From the IMG/VR virus record IMGVR_UViG_3300006310_000001: a stretch of 64,000 bases of DNA; one strand, given 5' to 3'. Shown here in pieces: positions 2,311-58,411 of the stretch. The notes beneath the pieces were generated by a model, which was not told the origin of the DNA, ran no database searches, and worked only from the letters and a program-made list of their open reading frames with translations. The position numbers and the translations under genes were made by a program. The first letter of the stretch is position 1. Every line of letters begins with the position of its first letter. Source of the DNA: a virus.

Positions 2311-3128
2311 ACGTTTTGTTCTTGTAATGTTCTATAAGCAGTTCCATCTGTAATTTCAGATATTGTAAATTGATTTTCTGCAATCATCTTTAACCATTCT
2401 GTTATAGTCTTTCGTCCTGGTCTCATTGGTTTGTTTATAAACTTTATATCTTTTGATGAAACAAATGACGCTATATTTCGTTGATGGCATATTACAGGTA
2501 CTTGATTTAATATTGAATCAATAGCAGATAAACTCATATTGGTTACCAAACAATGAGCATTTTTTAAGTCTTCTTTAATATCTGTATTCCAAAACTCATT
2601 ACCAGGTCTAGGTTTATTTCTAAATCTAACTGGTTTATCTGTATGTTCTGCTATCTGTTTTGTTGCTTGTTCAACCCATTGTGATTGGCTCATACCATTG
2701 ATTTGGTAAGTTACCGTTTCAGAAGAAGGTGCTACTAGTATATGAGTTGTTTCTCCAGTATTCCACCCTTTAAACTGTACATCAATCCCTTGATGCTCTA
2801 GTTTCTGTAATCTTGAACCAGGTCCAACTTTGCACCTAATCGTGTGTATATTACCTTTACATATTCTAAAATATGTCTTATCGTAATCGTGTATTTTAGG
2901 TTCTGGATATCTTGTAATTTGTTGTGTTAAATAACCAACATCTACGTACCACCATTCCTCACCACTCTCCATACATTTACGTATTTCTTTTCTATTCTGT
3001 CCAGCTAACCCCCAAAAAAAGTGAACAGGTTTATCTGTATCAGTCCAACCTTTTTCTATGGCAGGAAATAACTGTTTACTTAAACATTTATCCCAAGGTA
3101 TATTATGCGTTATTATCATAAGTTTCAA
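2307..3128 (-). CDS. capsule-polysaccharide-modification (KpsS-like / GT-B) family protein
   Basis: WWYVDVGY...YFR, ILVAPS, VRFRNKP, CLVTNMSLSAIDSILNQVPV; paralogous to 4155..4907. Confidence 0.5.
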   Translation of the reverse strand: MKLMIITHNIPWDKCLSKQLFPAIEKGWTDTDKPVHFFWGLAGQNRKEIRKCMESGEEWWYVDVGYLTQQITRYPEPKIHDYDKTYFRICKGNIHTIRCKVGPGSRLQKLEHQGIDVQFKGWNTGETTHILVAPSSETVTYQINGMSQSQWVEQATKQIAEHTDKPVRFRNKPRPGNEFWNTDIKEDLKNAHCLVTNMSLSAIDSILNQVPVICHQRNIASFVSSKDIKFINKPMRPGRKTITEWLKMIAENQFTISEITDGTAYRTLQEQNV

Positions 3129-4158
3129 ATACTGTATTCAATGATTGGTTACATCTAACAAAACTTGCACATTTAGGAATATCTTTTAGTCGTCTTGCAC
3201 CAATATAGGTACAACTTGACCTAACACCCCCTAATATATCTTCTATTGTTTCTTTAACAGCACCTCTATCAGGTAATATTACTGCTCGTCCTTCATTACC
3301 TCTATAACCGTCTTTTCGTTTTCCGTGTACTTCTCTTGCTCTATCAGAAGACATCCCATAAAACTCTCTTTTACCATCTTTACTTTCTACTTCACTTTCA
3401 TTATGTCCTGCTAACATTCCACCTAACATCACAAAATGAGCACCACCACCAAATGCTTTCGCAATATCTCCTGGCATATTACAACCACCATCTGCAACTA
3501 TATGACCACCAACACCATTAGCAGCGTCAGCACACTCTACTACTGCACTAAATTGAGGTACACCTACACCTGCCATTGTTCTTGTTGTACATACACTACC
3601 TGGTCCAATACCTACTTTAACTACGTCTGCACCTTGTATAATTAGTTCTTCGGTCATTTCAGCAGTTACTACATTACCTGCAATTATAGTTTTGTCTGGA
3701 TACTCTTCTCTAACTGCACCAACAAAATCTGAAAAGTTTGTATGGTAACCATTTGCAACATCTACTGTAATAAACTTAACATCTGGAAAACTCTTTAATA
3801 CTTTTTGCATTGTAGTATAATCTTCAGCATTATCATCCCATAATTTACCTGTGCCTGTACATACTGATAGATACTTTAATTTAATACCTTCACCTACTGC
3901 TTTTCTCCATTGTTCTATCGTTGTTGTCTTTGTAATCGTGGTCAACATCTTATACTCTTGTATAACTTTCGCCATACTAAATGTTCCCACTCCATCCATA
4001 TTACTTGCTATTATTGGACAACACTCATATGTTTCACCAGAATTTCTAAATGTAAATGACCTAGTCATTTCTACATCACGTCTTGATGATAATGTTGACC
4101 GTTTAGGTTTCAACAATACGTCTTTATAATCTAATTTTACTTCGTTATCTAATCTCAT
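3103..4158 (-). CDS. guaC: GMP reductase
   Basis: KLDYKDVLLKPKRSTLSSR, DVANG, KVGIGPGSVCTTR, FYGMSS; start moved to MRLDN at 4158 (ATGA overlap). Confidence 0.92.
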   Translation of the reverse strand: MRLDNEVKLDYKDVLLKPKRSTLSSRRDVEMTRSFTFRNSGETYECCPIIASNMDGVGTFSMAKVIQEYKMLTTITKTTTIEQWRKAVGEGIKLKYLSVCTGTGKLWDDNAEDYTTMQKVLKSFPDVKFITVDVANGYHTNFSDFVGAVREEYPDKTIIAGNVVTAEMTEELIIQGADVVKVGIGPGSVCTTRTMAGVGVPQFSAVVECADAANGVGGHIVADGGCNMPGDIAKAFGGGAHFVMLGGMLAGHNESEVESKDGKREFYGMSSDRAREVHGKRKDGYRGNEGRAVILPDRGAVKETIEDILGGVRSSCTYIGARRLKDIPKCASFVRCNQSLNTVFETYDNNA

Positions 4159-4907
4159 TGTACTTTTCTCCAAGCTGTTCCATTTTTTATTTCTGTCATA
4201 GTAAATTGATTTGCTAATAAACTATATATCCAGTTTAATCTAGCAGGTCTTATAGGTTGTTCTATTTTACTAAAATCGGTTAACCCCATTGGTACACCCA
4301 TATTCATTTTATCACAAAATACAGGTACCCCATTTAAAATAGCGTCAACTACAACTGCTGAATTATGAGATACTATAGCATATGCACTTTGTACTTCTTC
4401 TCTTAAAGGTCTGCTACTCTTTTTATCTCTTACTTTAATAGGTCTATCTGTATATTGTTTTAAAGTCTTTATAGTATCATCAACCCAACTACCTATATTA
4501 TGATATGCTATTTGAAAATGAGAAGGTGCTATAATTAAGATATAATTGCCATCACTTTTCCAGGGTTGTAATTTTATATACTGTTTATACTTTTTAATTC
4601 TTTCATTATCTTCATCTGTTAGTTCTTGTATAGTTTGTATATGATAATGATTTTTTGTTAATCTATATATTCTCTCACCAGTTACCTTTGATGGAGAGTG
4701 TCTATTACCATATAAGTAAGCGTGGTCAAAATAATAAAACTCTTTACTTTGTTTCAAAAGTTCGCCTGTGCCTCTTAATATTCCAAAACAAGTAATAGGT
4801 TTATCTATATCAACATCTTTAACATTATGTAATGTTCCTCCTGCACTTGAAACAAAATGTCTTACAATATCATCTGTTGCTGGTCTAGTTAATAATCCTT
4901 GTATCAT
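4155..4907 (-). CDS. capsule-polysaccharide-modification (KpsS-like / GT-B) family protein
   Basis: YYFDHAY...YR, ILIIAPS, IKVRDK, IVSHNSAVVVDAILNGVPVF. Confidence 0.5.
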   Translation of the reverse strand: MIQGLLTRPATDDIVRHFVSSAGGTLHNVKDVDIDKPITCFGILRGTGELLKQSKEFYYFDHAYLYGNRHSPSKVTGERIYRLTKNHYHIQTIQELTDEDNERIKKYKQYIKLQPWKSDGNYILIIAPSHFQIAYHNIGSWVDDTIKTLKQYTDRPIKVRDKKSSRPLREEVQSAYAIVSHNSAVVVDAILNGVPVFCDKMNMGVPMGLTDFSKIEQPIRPARLNWIYSLLANQFTMTEIKNGTAWRKVQ

Positions 4908-8779: not shown

Positions 8780-10606
8780 CTATATATTCATCTTAAATAC
8801 TTTATACCAAATCGCAAATGCCATTATAGTAAACAGTTCTTTTTGTGAGCGTTGACCAATATTAGGTAATATTTTCTTTTCTCCAGCTTTATTTAAACCT
8901 TTTGACCAACTTTCTCTTTTATTACACATATATTTATCATCTATTTCGGACTGGTTATATTCAAATATTTCTTGCATTTCTTTATTTGATAATACATTCC
9001 TAATATAATCTTTTAATACATTTCTATCATCAGCTCGTTTGCTAAGTCTACCTACAATAAATTCATCTGTAGGAAATCTCCAACCAGTTTTCTCTCTCTC
9101 TAATATTTTTAATGGTAATCTTTTATAATATGCTGTCTTTAATAGTGGTTTATTATAATATGCCCAATTATCTTCCATAAAATTCTTGTTGATTTTATGT
9201 TCACTAGGGATACTTCGTATATAATCTCTAAAAGTTTTATTCATAAAAGGAAATCTTCCTTCTAAACTAAATCTCATACCTAACTTATCATTTCTCATTA
9301 AAAAATCTTCTGATAATGTATTTAAACACTCAATGAACATAAAATCATTTCTTTCATCACCTTGCAAACCACCTTTTGGAAACCAACTATCAAGATACTC
9401 TAATTGTTCTTCGTGTGTTGCCCATAGTTCTTTATTTTTTAATTCTCTATGATTAGCACATAATGCTTTTAACTTCGTTGCCCAATCTGGTTGTCTATGA
9501 TGTTTATAACCAGCAAATAATTCATCTCCACCATCACCACTTAAAGTTACCGTTATGCCTTGATTTTTTATATTTTCATTAACACCATAATATACAGGCA
9601 AACTTTTACTTTGTCTAGGTTCTTCTAAAGCTAACGCTGTATTTTCCCAATTATCTATAAAATATTGTTGATTAATATATGGTTCTCTATGTTCACCACC
9701 ATATGTTGCTGACATTTCTTTTGCCAATATACAATCTTCGTTAGACCTTGATTTCCAATCATAAGTTTCAAACTTTGAACTAAATGTTTTTGGTTTTGTT
9801 TTCCCTAATTGGGACATTTCATAACAAATAGCCGTACTATCAATACCACCACTTAAAAACAATCCAATTTCTCTACGACCCATTAAGGTTTCTTTTACTG
9901 CCTGGTGTAATCTATTTCTAACTTCTTCTTTAATTTTACCTACATTTTTAACATTTCTTAACCCTATTTGTCTATTATTAATATTAGTAGAAATTTTAGC
10001 ACTAGTTACTACGTTCATCTTAACAACTTCACCTGGTACTAATTTTTTAATACCTTTAAACAATGTCAAATAACCAGAATTATATCCTTGTTTATAATAC
10101 TGTTTGAATGCCTCTTTATCTACTTTTCTTTCAAATCCTAATGTTAATAAACTTTTAATCTCGGATGAAAAAGCAAACTTACCATTTATATAACCATAAT
10201 AAAGAGGTTTAGTTCCATTACTATCTCTGGCAATAATTAATTCTTTTGTCTTCTTATTATAGCAAGCAAATGCAAACATTCCATCTAATTTTTCTATAAA
10301 TGATATGCCATATCTTTCTAAACCTAACATTAAAACTTCCGTATCTGTATTAGTTTTAAGTTTAAATTCTTTACCTAGTTCTTTGTAATTGTATATCTCA
10401 CCATTATATACTAACACCCTATCGTTATGAATCCAAGGTTGTTTTGAATTTTCTGTAGTGTCTATGATTGATAATAAATTATGACCTAAAGTAATATCTT
10501 CATCTTGCCAATGTCCATTACCATCAGGTCCTCTATGATGTGCTTCGCACAACATTTCTTTTATCAAACTAGTTGATGACCATAATATTCCGTGTATCGC
10601 ACACAT
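8780..10606 (-). CDS. asnB: asparagine synthase (glutamine-hydrolysing)-like amidotransferase
   Basis: N-terminal Cys, HRGPDG, YNGEIYNY, LSGGIDS, SGDGGDELFAGY, EGRFPF. Confidence 0.9.
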   Translation of the reverse strand: MCAIHGILWSSTSLIKEMLCEAHHRGPDGNGHWQDEDITLGHNLLSIIDTTENSKQPWIHNDRVLVYNGEIYNYKELGKEFKLKTNTDTEVLMLGLERYGISFIEKLDGMFAFACYNKKTKELIIARDSNGTKPLYYGYINGKFAFSSEIKSLLTLGFERKVDKEAFKQYYKQGYNSGYLTLFKGIKKLVPGEVVKMNVVTSAKISTNINNRQIGLRNVKNVGKIKEEVRNRLHQAVKETLMGRREIGLFLSGGIDSTAICYEMSQLGKTKPKTFSSKFETYDWKSRSNEDCILAKEMSATYGGEHREPYINQQYFIDNWENTALALEEPRQSKSLPVYYGVNENIKNQGITVTLSGDGGDELFAGYKHHRQPDWATKLKALCANHRELKNKELWATHEEQLEYLDSWFPKGGLQGDERNDFMFIECLNTLSEDFLMRNDKLGMRFSLEGRFPFMNKTFRDYIRSIPSEHKINKNFMEDNWAYYNKPLLKTAYYKRLPLKILEREKTGWRFPTDEFIVGRLSKRADDRNVLKDYIRNVLSNKEMQEIFEYNQSEIDDKYMCNKRESWSKGLNKAGEKKILPNIGQRSQKELFTIMAFAIWYKVFKMNI

Positions 10607-26996: not shown

Positions 26997-27181
26997 TACT
27001 GTACTATTTCATCTCCTGTTTTTACATTGGGTCTTGGTTTCTCACAAACAGAACAATCACATTTACTACAAATAATAGTTACTGTCTTTTGATTTCGTAA
27101 TCCATCTGGACTAGAAGTAATATACTCCATTAACTTTTCAGGACAATGAGCTTCCCTACCACAATTTTTACATTTTTCCAT
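26996..27181 (-). CDS. small Cys-rich putative zinc-binding protein
   Basis: CKNCGREAHC...CSKCDCSVC. Confidence 0.7.
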   Translation of the reverse strand: MEKCKNCGREAHCPEKLMEYITSSPDGLRNQKTVTIICSKCDCSVCEKPRPNVKTGDEIVQ

Positions 27182-28377
27182 TACTTTTTAAACTTTGTTG
27201 CCTCTTCTGAACCGCCTGTTGCTGTTCCTTTTGTATAAGAATGAGCACCCATACCTGCAAGGTCTCCATCTTTAACAATTAAATATTGATTTCTTATTTC
27301 TGTTCCATCAAATAAACACTCTAGTATTTCTCTTACACCAGCAGCATATCTTGTTTGTGCTGATAGTGAAGTACCTGAAGTGTGTGGTGTCATACCGTGG
27401 TTAGGCATTGTTCTCCATACGTGGTCATTAGGTGCTGGTTGTGGAAACCATACATCACCTGCATAACCGCTTAATTGTCCTGACTCTAATCCTCTAGCAA
27501 CAGCATCCTTATCACAAATTTTTCCTCTTGCTGTATTAATTATGTACGCACCTTTTTTGCACTTACTAATTAAATCATCATTAAACATATGTTCAGTTTC
27601 AGGATGTAAAGGACAACTTATATTAATCACATCACATACTGCAACTAACTCCTCAACTGAATTGTGATATATTAAATTTAATTCTTTCTCTTTATCTTCT
27701 GGCAATCTATGCTTATCAAAGTAATGTAGGTGTACATCAAATGGTTTCATCTTTCTTAACATATCATAACCTATACGTCCAGCAGCAATTGTACCTATAT
27801 GCATACCTTCTACGTCATAAGAACGTTTAACTGCGTCAGCTATATGCCAACCACCTTCGTTAACTATTCTATGTTGATTATGATAATCTCTAACTAGTGC
27901 TAGTATCATCATAACAATATGTTCTGCAACACTTCTACTATTACAATAAGTTACTTCAACTACATCAACTTTATGATCCATAGCCGCTTGTAAATCTACG
28001 TGGTCTGAACCAATACCTGCTGTAATTGCCATCTTTAAATTTGGAGCACTCTCTATTCTTTTTCTATTTAAATAGTACGGCCAGAATGGTTGTGATATGA
28101 CTACATCTGCGTCAACTAGTTCTTTATCTGCAACGCAACCATCTGCGTCTTTATCAGAAGTAACTACTAACGTATGTCCTGCGTCTTCTAAAAACTTTCT
28201 TAATCCTAATTCACCTGACACACATCCTAATAAATCACCTGGTCTAAAATCAATACCCTTTGGTGTAGGTAGTGTCATTCCATCTGGATACTTTTCTAAT
28301 TTTGGTAAGTCTTTGACTGGATATGATTTTGGCATTCCATCTTTAGGGTCGTCATATAATATACATAATATTTTCAT
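27181..28377 (-). CDS. fdh: NAD-dependent formate dehydrogenase (metal-independent)
   Basis: LGCVSGELGLRKFLE, SQPFWP, TAGIGSDHVD, AAGRIG, YFDKHR, NTARG, VWFPQPAP, PHTSG, GAHSY. Confidence 0.95.
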   Translation of the reverse strand: MKILCILYDDPKDGMPKSYPVKDLPKLEKYPDGMTLPTPKGIDFRPGDLLGCVSGELGLRKFLEDAGHTLVVTSDKDADGCVADKELVDADVVISQPFWPYYLNRKRIESAPNLKMAITAGIGSDHVDLQAAMDHKVDVVEVTYCNSRSVAEHIVMMILALVRDYHNQHRIVNEGGWHIADAVKRSYDVEGMHIGTIAAGRIGYDMLRKMKPFDVHLHYFDKHRLPEDKEKELNLIYHNSVEELVAVCDVINISCPLHPETEHMFNDDLISKCKKGAYIINTARGKICDKDAVARGLESGQLSGYAGDVWFPQPAPNDHVWRTMPNHGMTPHTSGTSLSAQTRYAAGVREILECLFDGTEIRNQYLIVKDGDLAGMGAHSYTKGTATGGSEEATKFKK

Positions 28378-30148: not shown

Positions 30149-30442
30149 TTATTTCTTTCTAGTTTTTATACTAGACGTTGGTTGTGCTCCTCTTACGTGA
30201 ACCATACCGCCCATAGTATTTTCTTTCTTTTTATTTCTTGGTTCTACTTTTGGATCAGCAGACAAAAAAGGTCTTTGATTTACTGCTGTTGTATAAGCAG
30301 CGTGTAATCCAACACCTCTAACATTTTTTCCACCTGCTCTTTTTTTAGGTGGTGTATCACCTAAACTTGCTATAGGTTGTGTATTTGAATAGTTTCCTAT
30401 TCTAACACCTGTTGTACCTATAAATTCTTTAAAACTTTTCAT
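30149..30442 (-). CDS. small basic putative internal head protein
   Basis: N-terminus MKSFKEFIGTT resembles T4 IPI MKTFKEFTSTT. Confidence 0.6.
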   Translation of the reverse strand: MKSFKEFIGTTGVRIGNYSNTQPIASLGDTPPKKRAGGKNVRGVGLHAAYTTAVNQRPFLSADPKVEPRNKKKENTMGGMVHVRGAQPTSSIKTRKK

Positions 30443-31589: not shown

Positions 31590-32015
31590 CTACACCAATT
31601 TAGCGTAGACCTTTGATGTTCCGTTTTTCAAAGTTTCATAATTAACTTCTAAATTTAGACCGCCAGATTTTTTGTGTGATATACCATCATCATTTAAATC
31701 AGAACCATCTGTATCTTTTCCAAACCTTCCACCAAATTGACTAACTTTCGCACTAACTTTTCCAGATGTTCCTTCCATATTAACTGGTGATACTGTTAAA
31801 CCAATTCGGTTTAGTTTTTCTCTCAAACTATCTACCGCTTGTTGTGGTTTAAGGTATTCCATATCTCCTATAGAACCTACAAAAGCATTAACTCTATTTA
31901 ATACTTCTGGATCGGAAACGTTATGAGCGCCTAAATTACCATCTTCAACAGCATTAGATGTAGCTGTGCCAACCATCTTGCCGTCTTCTGTTATGTGTTG
32001 TTTAAACGTTTTCAT
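31590..32015 (-). CDS. putative internal head protein
   Basis: N-terminus MKTFKQHITE|D. Confidence 0.65.
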   Translation of the reverse strand: MKTFKQHITEDGKMVGTATSNAVEDGNLGAHNVSDPEVLNRVNAFVGSIGDMEYLKPQQAVDSLREKLNRIGLTVSPVNMEGTSGKVSAKVSQFGGRFGKDTDGSDLNDDGISHKKSGGLNLEVNYETLKNGTSKVYAKLV

Positions 32016-33263: not shown

Positions 33264-33271
33264 TATTTATA
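33264..33271 (-). promoter_or_regulatory. T4-type late promoter TATAAATA
   Basis: Exact consensus, intergenic. Confidence 0.75.
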
Positions 33272-37149: not shown

Positions 37150-37572
37150 TTATTTAAATATGTTTTGTCTTTTGAAATTGTATGATAAACTATGTCTGCT
37201 GTATAAGTGTCCACCGTGTGTGTCAAATACACGATTTAATGAGTCCATATACTTTCTATCTAAAACGTTTCCTCTAGCACCTTTTGCTGGAGCATTAATA
37301 CCAGCTGCCTTCAAAACATCTCCTGTTACCTTATCTACGAAGGCGTGGATACTTCTCTTTTGTCCTCGTTCCGTATCCCAAATTTTGATATACTTACCAC
37401 CAACACTTGTAGCTACATCACGTTTTTGGTCTCTATATAAATTGGCAAATTGTGGGTGTCTTTTGATTTTTTCCCTAGCGATTTTAAGGTAATCATCAAC
37501 TCCCTTTAAGACCATAGCCGAACTTTCTGCTACGTATAGTTTTTGTACGTATTCTTTGAATTTAGTTGCCAT
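37150..37572 (-). CDS. phage protein with capsid-targeting-like N-terminus
   Basis: MATKFKEY...YVAE|S; GGKYIKI..SIHAFVDKVTGDVLKAA..APAKGARGN. Confidence 0.7.
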   Translation of the reverse strand: MATKFKEYVQKLYVAESSAMVLKGVDDYLKIAREKIKRHPQFANLYRDQKRDVATSVGGKYIKIWDTERGQKRSIHAFVDKVTGDVLKAAGINAPAKGARGNVLDRKYMDSLNRVFDTHGGHLYSRHSLSYNFKRQNIFK

Positions 37573-37580
37573 TTCTCTCT

Positions 37581-40322
37581 CTAAAGTTTCTCAATCATCT
37601 TAGCGACTACTTCGTTTAGTTTCGCTTTCCACTCTTCTTTATAACGTTGTTTATATTTATCTATTGTTGAATCTTGGTTTGACCATTCTTTTACTTCCTT
37701 TGTAGTTAATTTATCCTCACCAACTTTAGCATCCGTTGCCTTACCTGGGCGTGATATGTATGTATCAGTAGGTTTTCCTCGGTCTTTTGAGTCAACAGGA
37801 GGTGCATCCTCTTTTTCTCCTGGTGTCATCTGTTTACAATGATTAGCATAGTCAGCACCTATTTCATAACTATCTCTAATTGCTGTGTAAGGTTTAGGTA
37901 CTGGTATTGTTTCAACTGCTTCAAATCCATAATCAACATCTAGGTTGTATTCTCTTAACATTGGTTCTTTGTCAGCAGCAATTGGTATACAATCCCATAT
38001 CCAGCATTTGTGTAAATTATTATTCGTATCTTCTAGTACAACATAGTTCGTACCTCTTCGTACTACCTTACCTTGTTTATCTTCTTTAAGATACTTGACT
38101 TGGTCTCCAATATTAAATATCATCTCCCTAACGTATAGGTCTCTAACTTGTTTCTGTTCAAACTGTCCTAATGTCATAACAGGTTTTGAAATATCTGGTT
38201 TATAGTCTTCTCTTATACCCATACCTTTTCTTACTGCTTTAAACAGTCCATCAACATCTCTAAAATGAGATGGTAGTCCTCTCTTAAATGACGCTACATC
38301 ACCTTTTTGAGCAGCATCCCTCATCTTGCTCGCACTCATACCTGAAGCGCCCTCAGCGTCTGGATCACGCTCTCCAGCAGATATAACATCTATTGTTTTG
38401 AAGTTATAGAATCCGTGTCTATTCTTTTCATTGTTATATTTTTTAAGTATCGTTTCAAATTCTCTTACTCTATCACTACCTACTACAAATTTAAGAACAT
38501 TATGCCCTTTGTTATATAACATAGTAGCAATATCTAATATCATATTTGTTGTATTAATTTCAATGTTTCTAGCATATTGTGGAAATATCTTTTTCATCCA
38601 AGATAATTTTTCTCTAGGAGATAATGGATTCTTTTTACTATCTTCTGACCTACTGATATAGATTTTATAATTTCTATCTGCTCTTACAACTTTATTAATA
38701 AGTTTTTCGTGACCTATTGTTGGAGGATTAAATCTTCCAAATGTAATTGCAATAGATTTTTCTCCTACTGCTTCTGATTTTAAACTTTTTATTTCTGCGT
38801 CTGTTACCTTTTCATCTTCTAATATTTTTTTACATTTGTAAAAGAATTTTGTGTAATGAAATTTCTCCAAATACTTATAGACAACATTTTTAGGTAACTT
38901 ATGAGCGATACCATATTTTTTAATCTCTTCTGGTGTCAAAGGTCTATTAAATAAATCTCTTCTTGCCTGCATAAGGTTATCACCCATTTCGGACATCTTC
39001 TTTATAGCATCCTCTATCTCTTCTAATTTCTCAGCAGTTTTTATATGTAAATCTAATACATCATTTGGTTTTAATTCTTTTAACTCTTCATAGTCAACTA
39101 TATCTCTTTGTAATTCTCCTTTAACTACATCTAGTTCTGCCACTTTCTTTTGAAATTCTGCCTCATATACTTTAGGATCAAACGTTTGTGCTGGAGGTCT
39201 CTTATCAAATTTCTGTTTGAATACATCATAAACTCCTATAGAAGTTGCAAGATGAGCGTCATTTACTTTAGGGTCTGTTTGAACATAATAATTAATCGGG
39301 TGTTGCGTACCTGGTACTAACTTACCACTAACTTCTCCTACAGATTGTCTTGCTTCTAAACCAACTGTTTCTCTATCTTTTTCTGGTATGTCTATCAATA
39401 CATCAATATCTAAATCTGCGTCATTTCTATATCTCTTTCCAAGAATAGAACCTATTAATTTTACTGACACAACAGGACCCCATTTTGAAAAATGATTTGC
39501 ACCTGCTTTAATCATATCAAAAACTTTTGGTTTTAATTTTGGATTTTCTGTTTCAGCATTATCAAATACACCAACAGCATATCTACTTCTAGGTACATCT
39601 ATAATACTTTCTCCCATTACCAATCTTCTACCAACACTAAACATTGTATTCTTAAACATTTGTTCTCTTGACATCCAATTTTTTGCAATATGACTTTTAA
39701 CTGGTGCTCTCATATATCGTCTAACTAATCTATCACAACCTGCTAATGTTGCTGTTACCAATTCTTTATCTGACCTATTGTTATCTACTACAATAAAATT
39801 TGATTGACCAAATAATCTTTGAAACTTACCTATATTAGATTGTACTTTCTCCCAAGATGTTTGCACAACATATTCTGGTATTTGTCTACTTCTTATTTTA
39901 TTTCTTTCTAACGCAACAGGTAATGTTGTGTTAACAAATATCATATAACAATCATAACCTAATGCGTGTAGCATATTATATTCGGAACTTATTCTTCCAT
40001 AATCTCTTCCAGTTGCGTCAATAACTAAACCTAATCTGCCCCCTACATAGGTATGTAATTGTTTCATCATTGTACCTTTTGCTCTGGCTCTTATAAGGTC
40101 TCTAAAATATGCTTCTTGGTCAGGCATTTTGTCTGAAAGACCTGCCTGTTTTAATGCTCTTTCAAATATTGTATCTGAATTAACAAACTTTAATCCAGTT
40201 CCAGCAAATGCGGAAGAAGCGATAAAGGTTTTTCCTGAACCTGGTCCACCTGCCATAAAAAAGGCTTTAAATATACCTGGATCGTATACACCTTCTTGTA
40301 ATAAAAATTCTTTAAACTTCAT
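37581..40322 (-). CDS. multidomain P-loop kinase / Pol-beta nucleotidyltransferase / HIGH cytidylyltransferase-like protein
   Basis: GGPGSGKT (~aa 25-32); GSILGKRYRNDADLDIDV (~aa 290); TFGRFNPPTIGH (~aa 526) and MSASKMR. Confidence 0.8.
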   Translation of the reverse strand: MKFKEFLLQEGVYDPGIFKAFFMAGGPGSGKTFIASSAFAGTGLKFVNSDTIFERALKQAGLSDKMPDQEAYFRDLIRARAKGTMMKQLHTYVGGRLGLVIDATGRDYGRISSEYNMLHALGYDCYMIFVNTTLPVALERNKIRSRQIPEYVVQTSWEKVQSNIGKFQRLFGQSNFIVVDNNRSDKELVTATLAGCDRLVRRYMRAPVKSHIAKNWMSREQMFKNTMFSVGRRLVMGESIIDVPRSRYAVGVFDNAETENPKLKPKVFDMIKAGANHFSKWGPVVSVKLIGSILGKRYRNDADLDIDVLIDIPEKDRETVGLEARQSVGEVSGKLVPGTQHPINYYVQTDPKVNDAHLATSIGVYDVFKQKFDKRPPAQTFDPKVYEAEFQKKVAELDVVKGELQRDIVDYEELKELKPNDVLDLHIKTAEKLEEIEDAIKKMSEMGDNLMQARRDLFNRPLTPEEIKKYGIAHKLPKNVVYKYLEKFHYTKFFYKCKKILEDEKVTDAEIKSLKSEAVGEKSIAITFGRFNPPTIGHEKLINKVVRADRNYKIYISRSEDSKKNPLSPREKLSWMKKIFPQYARNIEINTTNMILDIATMLYNKGHNVLKFVVGSDRVREFETILKKYNNEKNRHGFYNFKTIDVISAGERDPDAEGASGMSASKMRDAAQKGDVASFKRGLPSHFRDVDGLFKAVRKGMGIREDYKPDISKPVMTLGQFEQKQVRDLYVREMIFNIGDQVKYLKEDKQGKVVRRGTNYVVLEDTNNNLHKCWIWDCIPIAADKEPMLREYNLDVDYGFEAVETIPVPKPYTAIRDSYEIGADYANHCKQMTPGEKEDAPPVDSKDRGKPTDTYISRPGKATDAKVGEDKLTTKEVKEWSNQDSTIDKYKQRYKEEWKAKLNEVVAKMIEKL

Positions 40323-41537
40323 TTATTTCCATCCTTTTGGCAACGTAAAGTTTGCCCTACTAAATTCTAATCTATCTACTATTTTTACTGCACCTGCTAC
40401 TCTATCTACTGCAACATATCCTTCAGGTGCTGTTACTCTATATCCTGTTCCAGTTTTAATGTAGTGTCCTATCTGTTGAATTTGATTCATCTTTTGTATC
40501 AATGTGTTCTTCGCATTACCTAAAGTTACGTGACTTGCAATTGCCATATATAGACCTGATTTATTTTGATTAATAAATCTTAATCCATCTGCTAATATAT
40601 CTCTATATTTTTGTTTTGCTTTTTCAGTTTTTCTTTGGTCTATTTCTGTCTTCAAAATGTTTTCATAATAATCTCTAAACATATCTTGCAAGACTCTAAC
40701 CTTTGCCATACTGCCTTTATTATTTCTAATGTAATGATTGAAAAATGCTTTTAATCTAAACCCTACAGATAAAGGGTCACTAGCACGACTAGTCATTTCA
40801 TCTAATATCTTACTTGCTCTACCTAAAGAACCTTCTGCCATTCTTAATTGAGCATCAAATTTTCCTAGTTCTGATTTAGTAAAAGTAATAGAACCAGAGT
40901 CATCCTTATATTCAGCACTCGCAACCCATACTCTTGCATTACCTGACCCTCTAACATTACCAAAACTTGCATTTAAACTTTTCATATCTTTACCAGTATA
41001 CATTGTATGAAATACTATACCCATTTTAGCACGAGCAATCTTCTTACCAATATTGCTACTTGCCTGTACTGCATATGTGATTGTATTTGGTGTAAAGGTT
41101 ATCATTTTTTCACCATCAATTGAAGCTGATTTTTTATCGTTAGTGAATAATAAATCACCTTGTAAAATTTGTTTAATGTTTAGACTAGATAAATGATTAA
41201 GACATACTGATAGTTTTTGAGCAACAGGACCAGAATGGTTCCGTCTTATGTCTGCTGTTGTGTAATTGATTTTAGGGGTTACGTTGAATATTGATTTTGT
41301 ACCAACAAAGAATTTACCGTTTTCAGGATTGACCCCACATATAATAGCAGGTGCCCCATCCCATTTAACAGTAGTATTGATTTTTGCTCCCGAGTGACCT
41401 GCGAGCATATCTCTTACTGATTTTAGAAAGTTAATTGCGTTAACTCCACCAGATGAACCTCTATTGATTATATCATCTTCTAGGTGTTCTAGGTGTGTGT
41501 TCTTATCGTTTGTTGTAAAACCTTTAAAACTAAACAT
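40323..41537 (-). CDS. ATP-dependent ligase-like protein (DUF6267-like)
   Basis: TVKWDG (KxDG), QGDLL, IVFH, PEGYV, VKIVDR. Confidence 0.65.
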   Translation of the reverse strand: MFSFKGFTTNDKNTHLEHLEDDIINRGSSGGVNAINFLKSVRDMLAGHSGAKINTTVKWDGAPAIICGVNPENGKFFVGTKSIFNVTPKINYTTADIRRNHSGPVAQKLSVCLNHLSSLNIKQILQGDLLFTNDKKSASIDGEKMITFTPNTITYAVQASSNIGKKIARAKMGIVFHTMYTGKDMKSLNASFGNVRGSGNARVWVASAEYKDDSGSITFTKSELGKFDAQLRMAEGSLGRASKILDEMTSRASDPLSVGFRLKAFFNHYIRNNKGSMAKVRVLQDMFRDYYENILKTEIDQRKTEKAKQKYRDILADGLRFINQNKSGLYMAIASHVTLGNAKNTLIQKMNQIQQIGHYIKTGTGYRVTAPEGYVAVDRVAGAVKIVDRLEFSRANFTLPKGWK

Positions 41538-41601: not shown

Positions 41602-41609
41602 TATTTATA
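41602..41609 (-). promoter_or_regulatory. T4-type late promoter TATAAATA
   Basis: Exact consensus upstream of ligase-like gene. Confidence 0.75.
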
Positions 41610-41682: not shown

Positions 41683-41883
41683 ATGAAACCACACGAAAAA
41701 GACTTTGACATTTTACAAGAGGAAATTCAAAAAGTTTTAGATAAAGCTGAAACGAAAATGAATACTCTTATAGATGATTATAGTACAAAGTATGAAGATG
41801 AAGATGACGCTGTACAAATTCAAACTTATGATTTAAGTTCTTTGTTCAGACAGTTATCTGACTTTGTTGAAGACCATATATAA
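41683..41883 (+). CDS. small acidic helical protein (66 aa)
   Basis: 18 D/E versus 7 K/R; fills gap; stop abuts stop of 41884..43299. Confidence 0.7.
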   Translation: MKPHEKDFDILQEEIQKVLDKAETKMNTLIDDYSTKYEDEDDAVQIQTYDLSSLFRQLSDFVEDHI

Positions 41884-56998: not shown

Positions 56999-58411
56999 TT
57001 ATTTTTTATCTTCTCCTTTCTTGTCATCTAAACTATACTTTGTAGTTATTATATATTTACGATTCGGATTAACCATTACGTTAAAACGATTCATTGTTTC
57101 TCTATCAAATAATATTTTAGATTTTTCATCCCTATCATCTAGGGTAAATTCTACTTCTTTGTAATATCCACCTGCAAATTCTACATCAAGTTTTATTACT
57201 AATCTTTCTTCTTTATAATCTCTTAATCCGCCTACTTCAATTGTTTGCTTACGCACTATATCGTTTGTAAGTGTCTTGCCTTCTAATGACCAAGTAACTT
57301 TACCACCGCCTTTTTTTATTTTATCAGCGTGTATAACAGACGTACCAGAGTTACCTGTATCAAACTTACCTACTATACGTCCAAATGGATGTATATGGAC
57401 AACTTCTTTATATCCACACTCGGTAGGTACTTTCTTCCAGTTATCTCTATCTTCAAAATATTGTACTATTTCTTTACTTAAATTTCTATGTGTTGCCTCT
57501 TCTATACCTTCTGTACCTGGTGAAGAGTTAACTTCAATAACAAATGGTGATTCTTTTACTCTATCTTCCGAAGGAATAAAGTCTACTGCTACCCATTGAC
57601 CATCTACTGCCTTCGCCGCTTTTAAACTTTCTTCTGTTTCTATTTTTGTTAGTGTTAATTCTTCTACTTCTGCACCTCTTGATACATTACTTCTGAAATC
57701 TCCTGGTACAACTTTTCTTTTCATAGCAGCAAATACTTTACCTTGCAATACTAATACTCTAGCATCCCATTTAGTTTTTATATATTGTTGCAATAGTATA
57801 TCAGAATCTTCATCTTGTTTATTAAGTAATTGTACTATTGAATCTAATGATTTTTCTGATTCAATAAACAAGACACCAACACCTTTTGAACCTCTTAATG
57901 TCTTTAAGATAACAGGAAACTTTTCTTCCAAACTTTCAAATGATTGTATTGAATTTTCTGGATCAGTTACCAATACTGATTTAGGTTGTTTAATACCATA
58001 GTCTGCTAATCTTAATGAAGTTCTATATTTGTCAGCACACATACTAATACATTGTCTACTGTTAATTACACACACTTGGTGTTTTTCTAATCTTGATACC
58101 AAGTCCATCCAACTATCTCTACGTACTACTGAACCTCTTACAATAGCAACTGTATCTTTTGCTGATACTCTAAATCCTTTTTTGTCATCTTGATTATGGA
58201 AATACATTTCTCCATCATCTTCAACGGTTACATACCCACCAGTATTTCTATAGATGTATGACTTATGACCAAGCTTATCTGCTTGTTTCATTAAGTTCTT
58301 TGCTGTATGGAAATTTAAATCATCTTCAGGTTCATCTGATATAATGATTAATCTATATGATCCAGAAGTTTTTGCTTCTGTTATGTAATCTTTGAATTTT
58401 GGTATCTGCAT
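56999..58411 (-). CDS. rimK: RimK-like ATP-grasp ligase fused to retropepsin-like (RimB-type) protease
   Basis: [39 protein letters not shown]; then KFDTGNSG (DTG). Confidence 0.85.

Follow-up and report, generated by a model that had tools for sequence, protein, structure and literature searches.

A fused kinase, nucleotidyltransferase and HIGH-domain protein with a capsid-targeting-like leader, a probable head cargo of a marine T4-like myophage

The window analysed in this study is a stretch of 64,000 nucleotides (64 kb) of viral DNA from IMG/VR record IMGVR_UViG_3300006310_000001, and the gene of interest lies at positions 37581-40322 within it. This interval is one uninterrupted open reading frame (ORF) of 913 codons on the minus strand (start at 40322, stop at 37581-37583); a reading on the plus strand was ruled out, being riddled with stops. 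The encoded chain comprises a P-loop kinase, a Pol-beta nucleotidyltransferase (NTase) with a long helical hairpin, a HIGH-motif domain resembling phosphopantetheine adenylyltransferase (PPAT) and nicotinamide mononucleotide adenylyltransferase (NMNAT), and a small beta-barrel and tail. A first-pass annotation of the DNA, made from the letters alone, had reported three catalytic signatures in this one chain, and all of the motifs that it quoted were located in the 913-amino-acid (aa) translation. The features of the gene are as follows, a slash within a sequence marking a putative cleavage point here and throughout.

40293..40322, minus strand: leader MKFKEFLLQE, residues 1-10, similar to the capsid-targeting sequence (CTS) of phage T4 and ending in L-x-E
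39609..40292, minus strand: P-loop kinase domain, residues 11-238, from Pfam AAA_33 and conserved catalytic residues
40227-40247, minus strand: Walker A motif GPGSGKT, residues 26-32
39606..39611, minus strand: junction E238/S239 (LVMGE/SIIDVPR), apparent relic of the end of a second leader and candidate prohead-protease site
38772..39608, minus strand: Pol-beta-type NTase domain, residues 239-517, with a core at ~252-380 followed by the long helical hairpin
39402-39452, minus strand: Pol-beta NTase signature, GS 291-292 and DLDID 303-307
38208..38771, minus strand: HIGH-motif adenylyltransferase-like domain, residues 518-705, from fold and motifs
38709-38738, minus strand: HIGH motif GRFNPPTIGH, residues 529-538
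38319-38336, minus strand: second HIGH-enzyme motif SASKMR, residues 663-668
37584..38207, minus strand: C-terminal region, residues 706-913, from model secondary structure, predicted local distance difference test (pLDDT) scores and conserved columns

The gene for the 913-aa protein is real, abundant and under selection, with 2123 homologues in public metagenomes (E <= 1e-5), many of them 75-97% identical. Megablast of the locus against cultured phages gave no match. The window is AT-rich (31% G+C) and carries T4-type replication genes (UvsX, gp41-type helicase) ordered as in Pelagibacter phage HTVC008M, from which the source is taken to be a marine T4-like (Kyanoviridae-like) myophage.

The CTS of T4 reads MKTYQEFIAE and is cut after the Glu (PMC8442874), and the T4 internal proteins IPI-III are loaded into the prohead via such a leader, which gp21 removes after Glu (PMC8442874; PMC9026906). 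The capsid-targeting leader claimed in the first-pass annotation was borne out as a CTS-like sequence, in that MKFKEFLLQE has the T4 CTS pattern, turns up again elsewhere in the window and can move from one protein to another. Its core motif, [FY][KRQ][EDQ][FYH][ILVM], occurs 10 times in the 72 window proteins (19,204 residues), and half of these occurrences (5/10) fall within the first 10 residues, an N-terminal enrichment. The codons differ among the window leaders, so that the conservation is at the level of protein. Four other window proteins bear such a start and, on the strength of these N-termini, may be additional head cargo:

56999-58411, minus strand: RimK-like ATP-grasp protein with a Zn_protease-like C-terminus; CTS-like leader, then /A
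37150-37572, minus strand: DUF7717, 140 aa, the gene downstream of the 913-aa gene; leader-like start MATKFKEYVQKLYVAE/S
31590-32015, minus strand: 141-aa ORF; leader MKTFKQHITE/D
30149-30442, minus strand: 97-aa ORF; leader MKSFKEFIGT...

Kinase homologues drawn from five phage groups all have E10, and nearly all have G11. The homologue in Cronobacter phage S13, a member of the T4 family, starts MNFKEFCQLDE/A and follows the lysozyme gene and a tRNA cluster at a distance of a few genes, whilst that of jumbo phage RsoM2USA starts MTTFKEYLLE/G and stands in a run of leader-bearing genes. In this Ralstonia phage (L092, 1094-4235), four consecutive genes have CTS-like starts, that of the kinase homologue included (MRLKQFLME/A, MKFSDYILE/S, MNQTFKQFLTE/T and MTTFKEYLLE/G). 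The kinase homologue of Agrobacterium phage Atu_ph07 possesses an internal ...EVTE/GVND junction; in that phage (L090, 486-5090), three paralogues start MRWEQLxE or MKWNDLNE and share a (Y)RGM motif, with one of the three holding the kinase domain internally.

The arrangement of the domains was compared across 80 related viral-contig loci. In 46 of the 80, the kinase and the NTase+HIGH protein are encoded by two adjacent genes, each with a leader of its own, and the three-domain fusion was seen only in the four closest relatives (L002-L005); the 913-aa protein therefore arose recently, in this lineage only, by the joining of two genes. The leaders of the two-gene relatives are 9-14 residues long and end in hydrophobic-x-Glu, an example of a kinase start being MKKLNQILRE/GVYDPGIFKAFF, and the NTase+HIGH genes start M[KR]FKD[YF]IKE/SIIDIPR. 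The fusion junction coincides exactly with the leader end of these separately encoded NTase+HIGH proteins. Glu238 is kept in 118 of 121 family members, with L, I, F or M at P3, and in some distant NTase relatives the leader is missing and MSILD is the very start, which indicates that Glu238 is a residue of the leader, not of the fold. Three Glu sites between domains had been put forward as possible cleavage points, VMGE/S (235-239), KSE/A (515-518) and IRE/D (703-706), and these fared differently. VMGE/S is well supported, as it is the old leader end; KSE/A is plausible, with Glu517 present in 118/121 members and a clean L-x-E in only 31/121; IRE/D is a weak candidate, Glu705 being present in only 37/121.

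The gene upstream encodes DUF6267 and is preceded by a motif resembling a T4 late promoter:

40323..41537, minus strand: DUF6267, 404 aa, upstream gene, Pfam PF19782 at E 1e-122
41602..41609, minus strand: TATAAATA, T4 late-promoter-like motif, 65 nt upstream of the DUF6267 start

There are nine matches to TATAAATA in the window (20089, 25073, 29769, 32878, 33271, 41609, 43322, 48553 and 62767), every one on the coding (minus) strand; five of the nine lie 16-65 nt upstream of a start codon. The next match downstream of 41609 is that at 33271, with none between, which fits the reading of DUF6267, the 913-aa gene and the downstream genes as one late transcription unit. Scans of the block for sigma-70-type promoters and terminators gave results at chance level. 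A lone ORF of 66 aa on the plus strand (41683-41883) separates the 471-aa gene from the late-promoter-like motif of the DUF6267 block and runs in the opposite orientation to nearly all other window genes.

DUF6267 adjoins a cytidylyltransferase in 469 phage records, and in phrog_455 the two are fused. What cyanophages and pelagiphages have in common is this conserved core pair of DUF6267 and the HIGH domain; pelagiphage-like lineages have the kinase in addition, and only uncultured lineages have the Pol-beta NTase as well. Invariant in DUF6267 are K58-W-D-G, Q126-x-D128, E372-G-x-V and K385-x-V-x-R, the first, third and fourth of which follow the order of motifs in covalent nucleotidyltransferases (ligase motifs I, IV and V). 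ESM-Atlas feature searches with DUF6267 returned only DUF6267 or unnamed viral clusters, a second homologue search gave only sequences >93% identical and hence no added diversity, and no literature on DUF6267 was found. Five complete T4-like genomes with the DUF6267-HIGH pair (L001, L082, L083, L084 and L086) hold no recognisable ATP-dependent DNA ligase, and likewise no recognisable NAD-dependent DNA ligase or Rnl2-type RNA ligase, which keeps the ligase idea for DUF6267 alive. Cyanomyoviruses and pelagimyoviruses might have in DUF6267 the ligase that they seem to lack, although a profile search of the PDB with it found none.

Evidence bearing on packaging also comes from cyanophages. Residues 517-851 of the 913-aa protein match, with 37-39% identity, a cyanomyovirus core gene labelled 'cytitidyltransferase', which was detected in the virion proteomes of S-CREM2 (ORF154, 3 peptides) and S-SZBM1 (S-SZBM1_140, 2 peptides; the neighbouring ORF139 was also detected). 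Like the 913-aa gene, these homologues lie just downstream of DUF6267 and have the same kind of leader, S-SZBM1_140 starting MRFRQFIIE/A, but they are without the kinase and Pol-beta NTase domains. The S-CREM2 authors remark that kinases and cytidyltransferases are frequent in cyanophage virions. A gp21-type protease (PF03420, Peptidase_S77) is encoded by HTVC008M, Melnitz and contig G003, which have the same gene cluster; it was not found in the nearest record, G001, which is a 63% fragment. T4 packages and delivers beta-galactosidase by the CTS route (PMC9026906), so size is no bar to packaging. The suggestion that the CTS lets T4-like phages load varied proteins has already been made in a review (PMC9026906), and no paper was found in which the cyanophage cytidylyltransferase, or these kinases and NTases, are connected with CTS-type leaders.

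Taken together, these observations make packaging of the 913-aa protein in the virion likely, and the interpretation preferred here, with moderate confidence, is that a T4-like marine myophage makes the protein late in infection as an enzyme cargo targeted to the capsid. The leader would dock the protein to the prohead scaffolding core, as with T4 IPI-III and Alt, and would be removed after Glu10 by a gp21-type prohead protease, which probably would also cut after Glu238 and thus free the kinase from the NTase-HIGH part. The products would remain in the head and be injected together with the DNA, ahead of all phage gene expression.

Several observations weigh against this interpretation. The proteome detections amount to 2-3 peptides each and concern HIGH-domain homologues that lack the kinase and NTase, and the S-CREM2 authors themselves note possible carry-over of abundant proteins. 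The 64-kb window contains neither head genes nor a prohead protease, the latter having been seen only in relatives, and the gene has replication genes around it (UvsX, gp41 helicase, DNA polymerase). At the internal junction, P3 is occupied by Met in this protein and not by Leu or Ile, and short Lys/Phe/Glu-rich N-termini could serve some other purpose. The protein might accordingly be a late or replication enzyme that acts in the cytoplasm and is not packaged, its N-terminal motif being a feature of translation or folding and the virion detections contamination. The replication neighbourhood and the carry-over raised for S-CREM2 agree with such an enzyme, as does the want of a recognisable DNA or RNA ligase in the five complete DUF6267-HIGH genomes, since the cluster could then serve cytoplasmic replication or repair. 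An unpackaged enzyme is nevertheless considered unlikely, as the leader, conserved in its protein sequence, has hydrophobic-x-Glu at its end, is found on unrelated proteins, is dispensable in some relatives and was kept as an internal junction after fusion; in addition, a homologue was detected in two independent virion proteomes, and a late-promoter-like motif stands at the head of the block.

As to what such a cargo would do, single-sequence searches of the PDB with each of the three domains gave weak or irrelevant matches only, and the assignments that follow draw on profiles, motifs and models. The kinase domain has a Walker A motif, a catalytic Asp ~20 residues further on and lid arginines, and scores above the Pfam cut-off, with AAA_33 matching residues 22-162 at 45.7 bits (cut-off 27, E 1e-11). 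The kinase homologues share without exception GxxGxGK31 (which holds the Walker A lysine), D50, D102, R144 and R146, and R140, R144 and R146 of the lid form a conserved 'RNxxRxR'. With a profile of the kinase family, the best PDB matches were zeta toxin (1.4e-7, in the N-terminal half) and the tRNA kinase PSTK (7.6e-7), followed by weaker ones to Clostridium thermocellum Pnkp (CthPnkp, 7e-4), dephospho-CoA kinase (8e-4), adenylate kinases (~1e-3) and T4 Pnk (0.01). The 913-aa query did not reach the gathering score of Zeta_toxin PF06414 (20.4 bits against 22.3), and a precomputed PF06414 label is present on some of its close relatives. On these sequence comparisons, the kinase appears tied between zeta toxin and PSTK, equally near to both.

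The middle domain carries the hG[GS]-x9-13-Dh[DE]h signature, with D303-L-D305 coming 10 residues after G291-S292. In 67 distant stand-alone relatives (26-45% identity), G291 is conserved in 100%, D303 in 94% and D305 in 97%, and H341, R454, K483 and Y490 are likewise conserved. In the structure model the alpha/beta core has a pLDDT of ~90, whilst the long helical hairpin is of low confidence. Foldseek with this domain gave weak matches (best E 6e-3), the top ranks of which were nearly all Pol-beta NTases, namely ANT(9)/AAD(9), AadA, LinB, CdnE, Cid1 and MNT, those of MNT type with a probability of 0.90-0.94 and a TM of 0.5. Relatives of the domain reach Pfam NTP_transf_2/Polbeta, and the query itself is under the cut-off. 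VIA structure searches with the middle-domain model returned coiled-coil hairpins, which say nothing on the NTase core, and a profile of NTase+HIGH found only PPAT in the PDB (E 0.2-0.3). From its motifs, the middle domain looks like an active but unclassified Pol-beta NTase. Its family comprises 613 clusters in a representative library of 1.8 billion proteins, has no tblastn match in 50,697 cultured-phage records and is covered by no PHROG family. It also occurs inside giant proteins of 1500-3974 residues (P0204, P0221, P0235, P0243 and P0252), which may be multi-enzyme cargo polyproteins. Some of these have weak matches to ADP-ribosyltransferases of PARP/Tpt1/Arr type, and some have an N-terminal FDFDDTLAKT motif that may mark a HAD-type phosphatase domain; Pfam scans of four of the giant proteins found almost nothing.

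The third domain has the motifs of the HIGH superfamily (TIGH at 535-538, MSASKMR at 662-668) on a Rossmann-like fold, and scores 18.2 with PF01467 CTP_transf_like, just under the cut-off of 21. Foldseek with its model found PPAT (3l92, E 3e-6) and NadM (9e-6), and VIA gave PPAT a Z of 14.3 (149 residues, root-mean-square deviation 2.8) and archaeal NMNAT a Z of 13.6, with archaeal NMNAT and NadM together spanning 13.2-13.6. The best NCBIfam match is the NMNAT domain of NadR (3.8e-7). The equivalog cut-offs were reached neither for NMNAT (TIGR01526, 29.7 bits against 341; TIGR01527, 14.1 against 181) nor for CoaD (TIGR01510, 20 against 103), and on its model the domain would be equally PPAT-like and NMNAT-like, a tie. 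The PHROG 'cytidyltransferase' families (395/3041) cover residues 502-841 at E 1e-67, and the C-terminal region lies within the cyanophage family of this name as far as ~residue 851. This region contains a five-stranded beta-barrel (~741-780), disordered linkers and conserved terminal helices. No literature on 'cytitidyltransferase' was found.

The chemistry, which is the least certain part of this interpretation, would combine ATP-dependent phosphorylation with two nucleotidyl transfers on nucleotide-like substrates. The leading guess, held tentatively and at less than even confidence, is that the protein acts with the ligase-like DUF6267 in healing and sealing broken RNA or DNA ends; this draws on the PNK/PSTK-like kinase, the ligase-like neighbour, the NTase and the HAD-family gene that ends the block. 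As in T4 Pnk with RNA ligase (PNK denoting polynucleotide kinase) and in bacterial Pnkp/Hen1, the kinase has an Asp general base and the RNxxRxR...VP of the PNK/PSTK group, and it would be co-transcribed with a protein of ligase-like motif order. Unlike those repair systems, no ligase, phosphoesterase or methyltransferase domain was recognised here, and the HIGH domain has no counterpart there; the T4 repair enzymes, moreover, are early cytoplasmic proteins and not head cargo. Single-sequence and profile searches of the PDB with DUF6267 found no ligase, and the hints as to substrate are tied (PPAT with NMNAT, zeta toxin with PSTK), with no close solved relative for the NTase; both points weigh against the interpretation preferred here.

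Close behind, and also somewhat doubtful, is the injected synthesis of an ADP-linked cofactor such as NAD+, an idea of the first-pass annotation, in the manner of NadR or CoA synthase, in which the kinase would phosphorylate a riboside or nucleotide precursor and the HIGH domain adenylylate the product. By this route, nicotinamide mononucleotide would be turned into NAD+, or phosphopantetheine into dephospho-CoA, refilling a pool destroyed by NAD-depleting defences before phage genes are expressed. The fold matches to archaeal NMNAT/NadM and to PPAT, and the NadR domain as best NCBIfam match, favour such synthesis, and the cyanophage literature already terms the homologue NMNAT-like. NadR (NMNAT and ribosylnicotinamide kinase) and CoA synthase (PPAT and dephospho-CoA kinase) also place a HIGH domain and a P-loop kinase in one chain, and dephospho-CoA kinase is among the matches of the kinase profile. 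In the 913-aa protein, in contrast, the domain order is reversed, a Pol-beta NTase stands in between, and the kinase is nearer to zeta toxin, PSTK and PNK than to the kinase of NadR. The NCBIfam scores are far under every equivalog cut-off, and the pairing is not conserved in cyanophages, where the HIGH domain occurs with neither kinase nor NTase, so a relay from kinase to adenylyltransferase does not form the conserved core. The 10 larger window ORFs that were scanned included no Nampt-like or other NAD-salvage gene, and cofactor synthesis leaves the Pol-beta NTase and the conserved DUF6267 partner unexplained.

T4 Alt ADP-ribosylates RNA polymerase, and an Alt-like modification of the host ranks third, after end repair and cofactor synthesis. 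A zeta-like kinase and an AMPylating or otherwise nucleotidylating NTase would here be injected as a toxin-like means of takeover, modifying host metabolites or proteins. Zeta toxin is indeed the best solved relative of the kinase profile, among the weak structural neighbours of the NTase are adenylyltransferases of small molecules as well as MNT, an antitoxin that acts by AMPylation of its toxin, some NTase relatives are fused to weak PARP/Tpt1/Arr-like signatures, and the Atu_ph07 kinase sits behind a domain with the YRGM motif. All of these similarities are, however, weak or sub-threshold, as with the Zeta_toxin score, and they carry no information on a target; this is considered quite improbable.

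The window encodes further enzymes of metabolic type, all on the minus strand, including an IMPDH/GMP-reductase-family protein (3103-4173), an asparagine-synthase-type amidotransferase (8780-10606) and a NAD-binding enzyme of D-2-hydroxyacid/formate-dehydrogenase type (27181-28377).

CTS-directed cargo is textbook knowledge for T4, where it consists mostly of small inhibitors plus one enzyme, Alt. The 913-aa protein shares with IPI, IPII, IPIII and Alt a leader of ~10 residues with the pattern MK-x-[YF]-x-[ED]-[FY]-[IL]-x-E, ending in Glu, and, as in T4, such a leader stands on unrelated proteins, T4-type relatives here encoding a gp21-type protease, with Alt as the precedent for a packaged enzyme. 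It differs from T4 cargo in being a 105-kDa chain of three nucleotide-handling enzymes with a second, internal leader-end junction that arose from gene fusion. The phages, too, differ from T4, being marine Kyanoviridae-like myoviruses for which packaging and cleavage are predicted. More speculatively, new cargo would be acquired through gene fusion, with the protease then cutting at the leader junctions that were retained.

It is a rather speculative proposal that marine T4-like phages deliver a capsid-borne kit of kinase, NTase, HIGH domain and ligase-like DUF6267 for a reaction sequence that has not been described. Such a kit would act in the first seconds of infection, either in resynthesis of a depleted cofactor or in repair of cleaved tRNA or nicked phage DNA, and infection would then proceed even where translation or metabolism had already been shut down by host defences. 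The T4 loading tag is here found on large enzymes of metabolic type in phages that count among the most abundant in the ocean (relatives of HTVC008M and cyanomyoviruses), and targeting to the head would explain the recurrent 'cytidylyltransferases' and kinases in cyanophage virion proteomes. The comparison of split and fused genes yields concrete, testable predictions of protease cut sites. If the enzymes do counter NAD depletion or RNA cleavage, they would represent a new class of pre-packed counter-defence.

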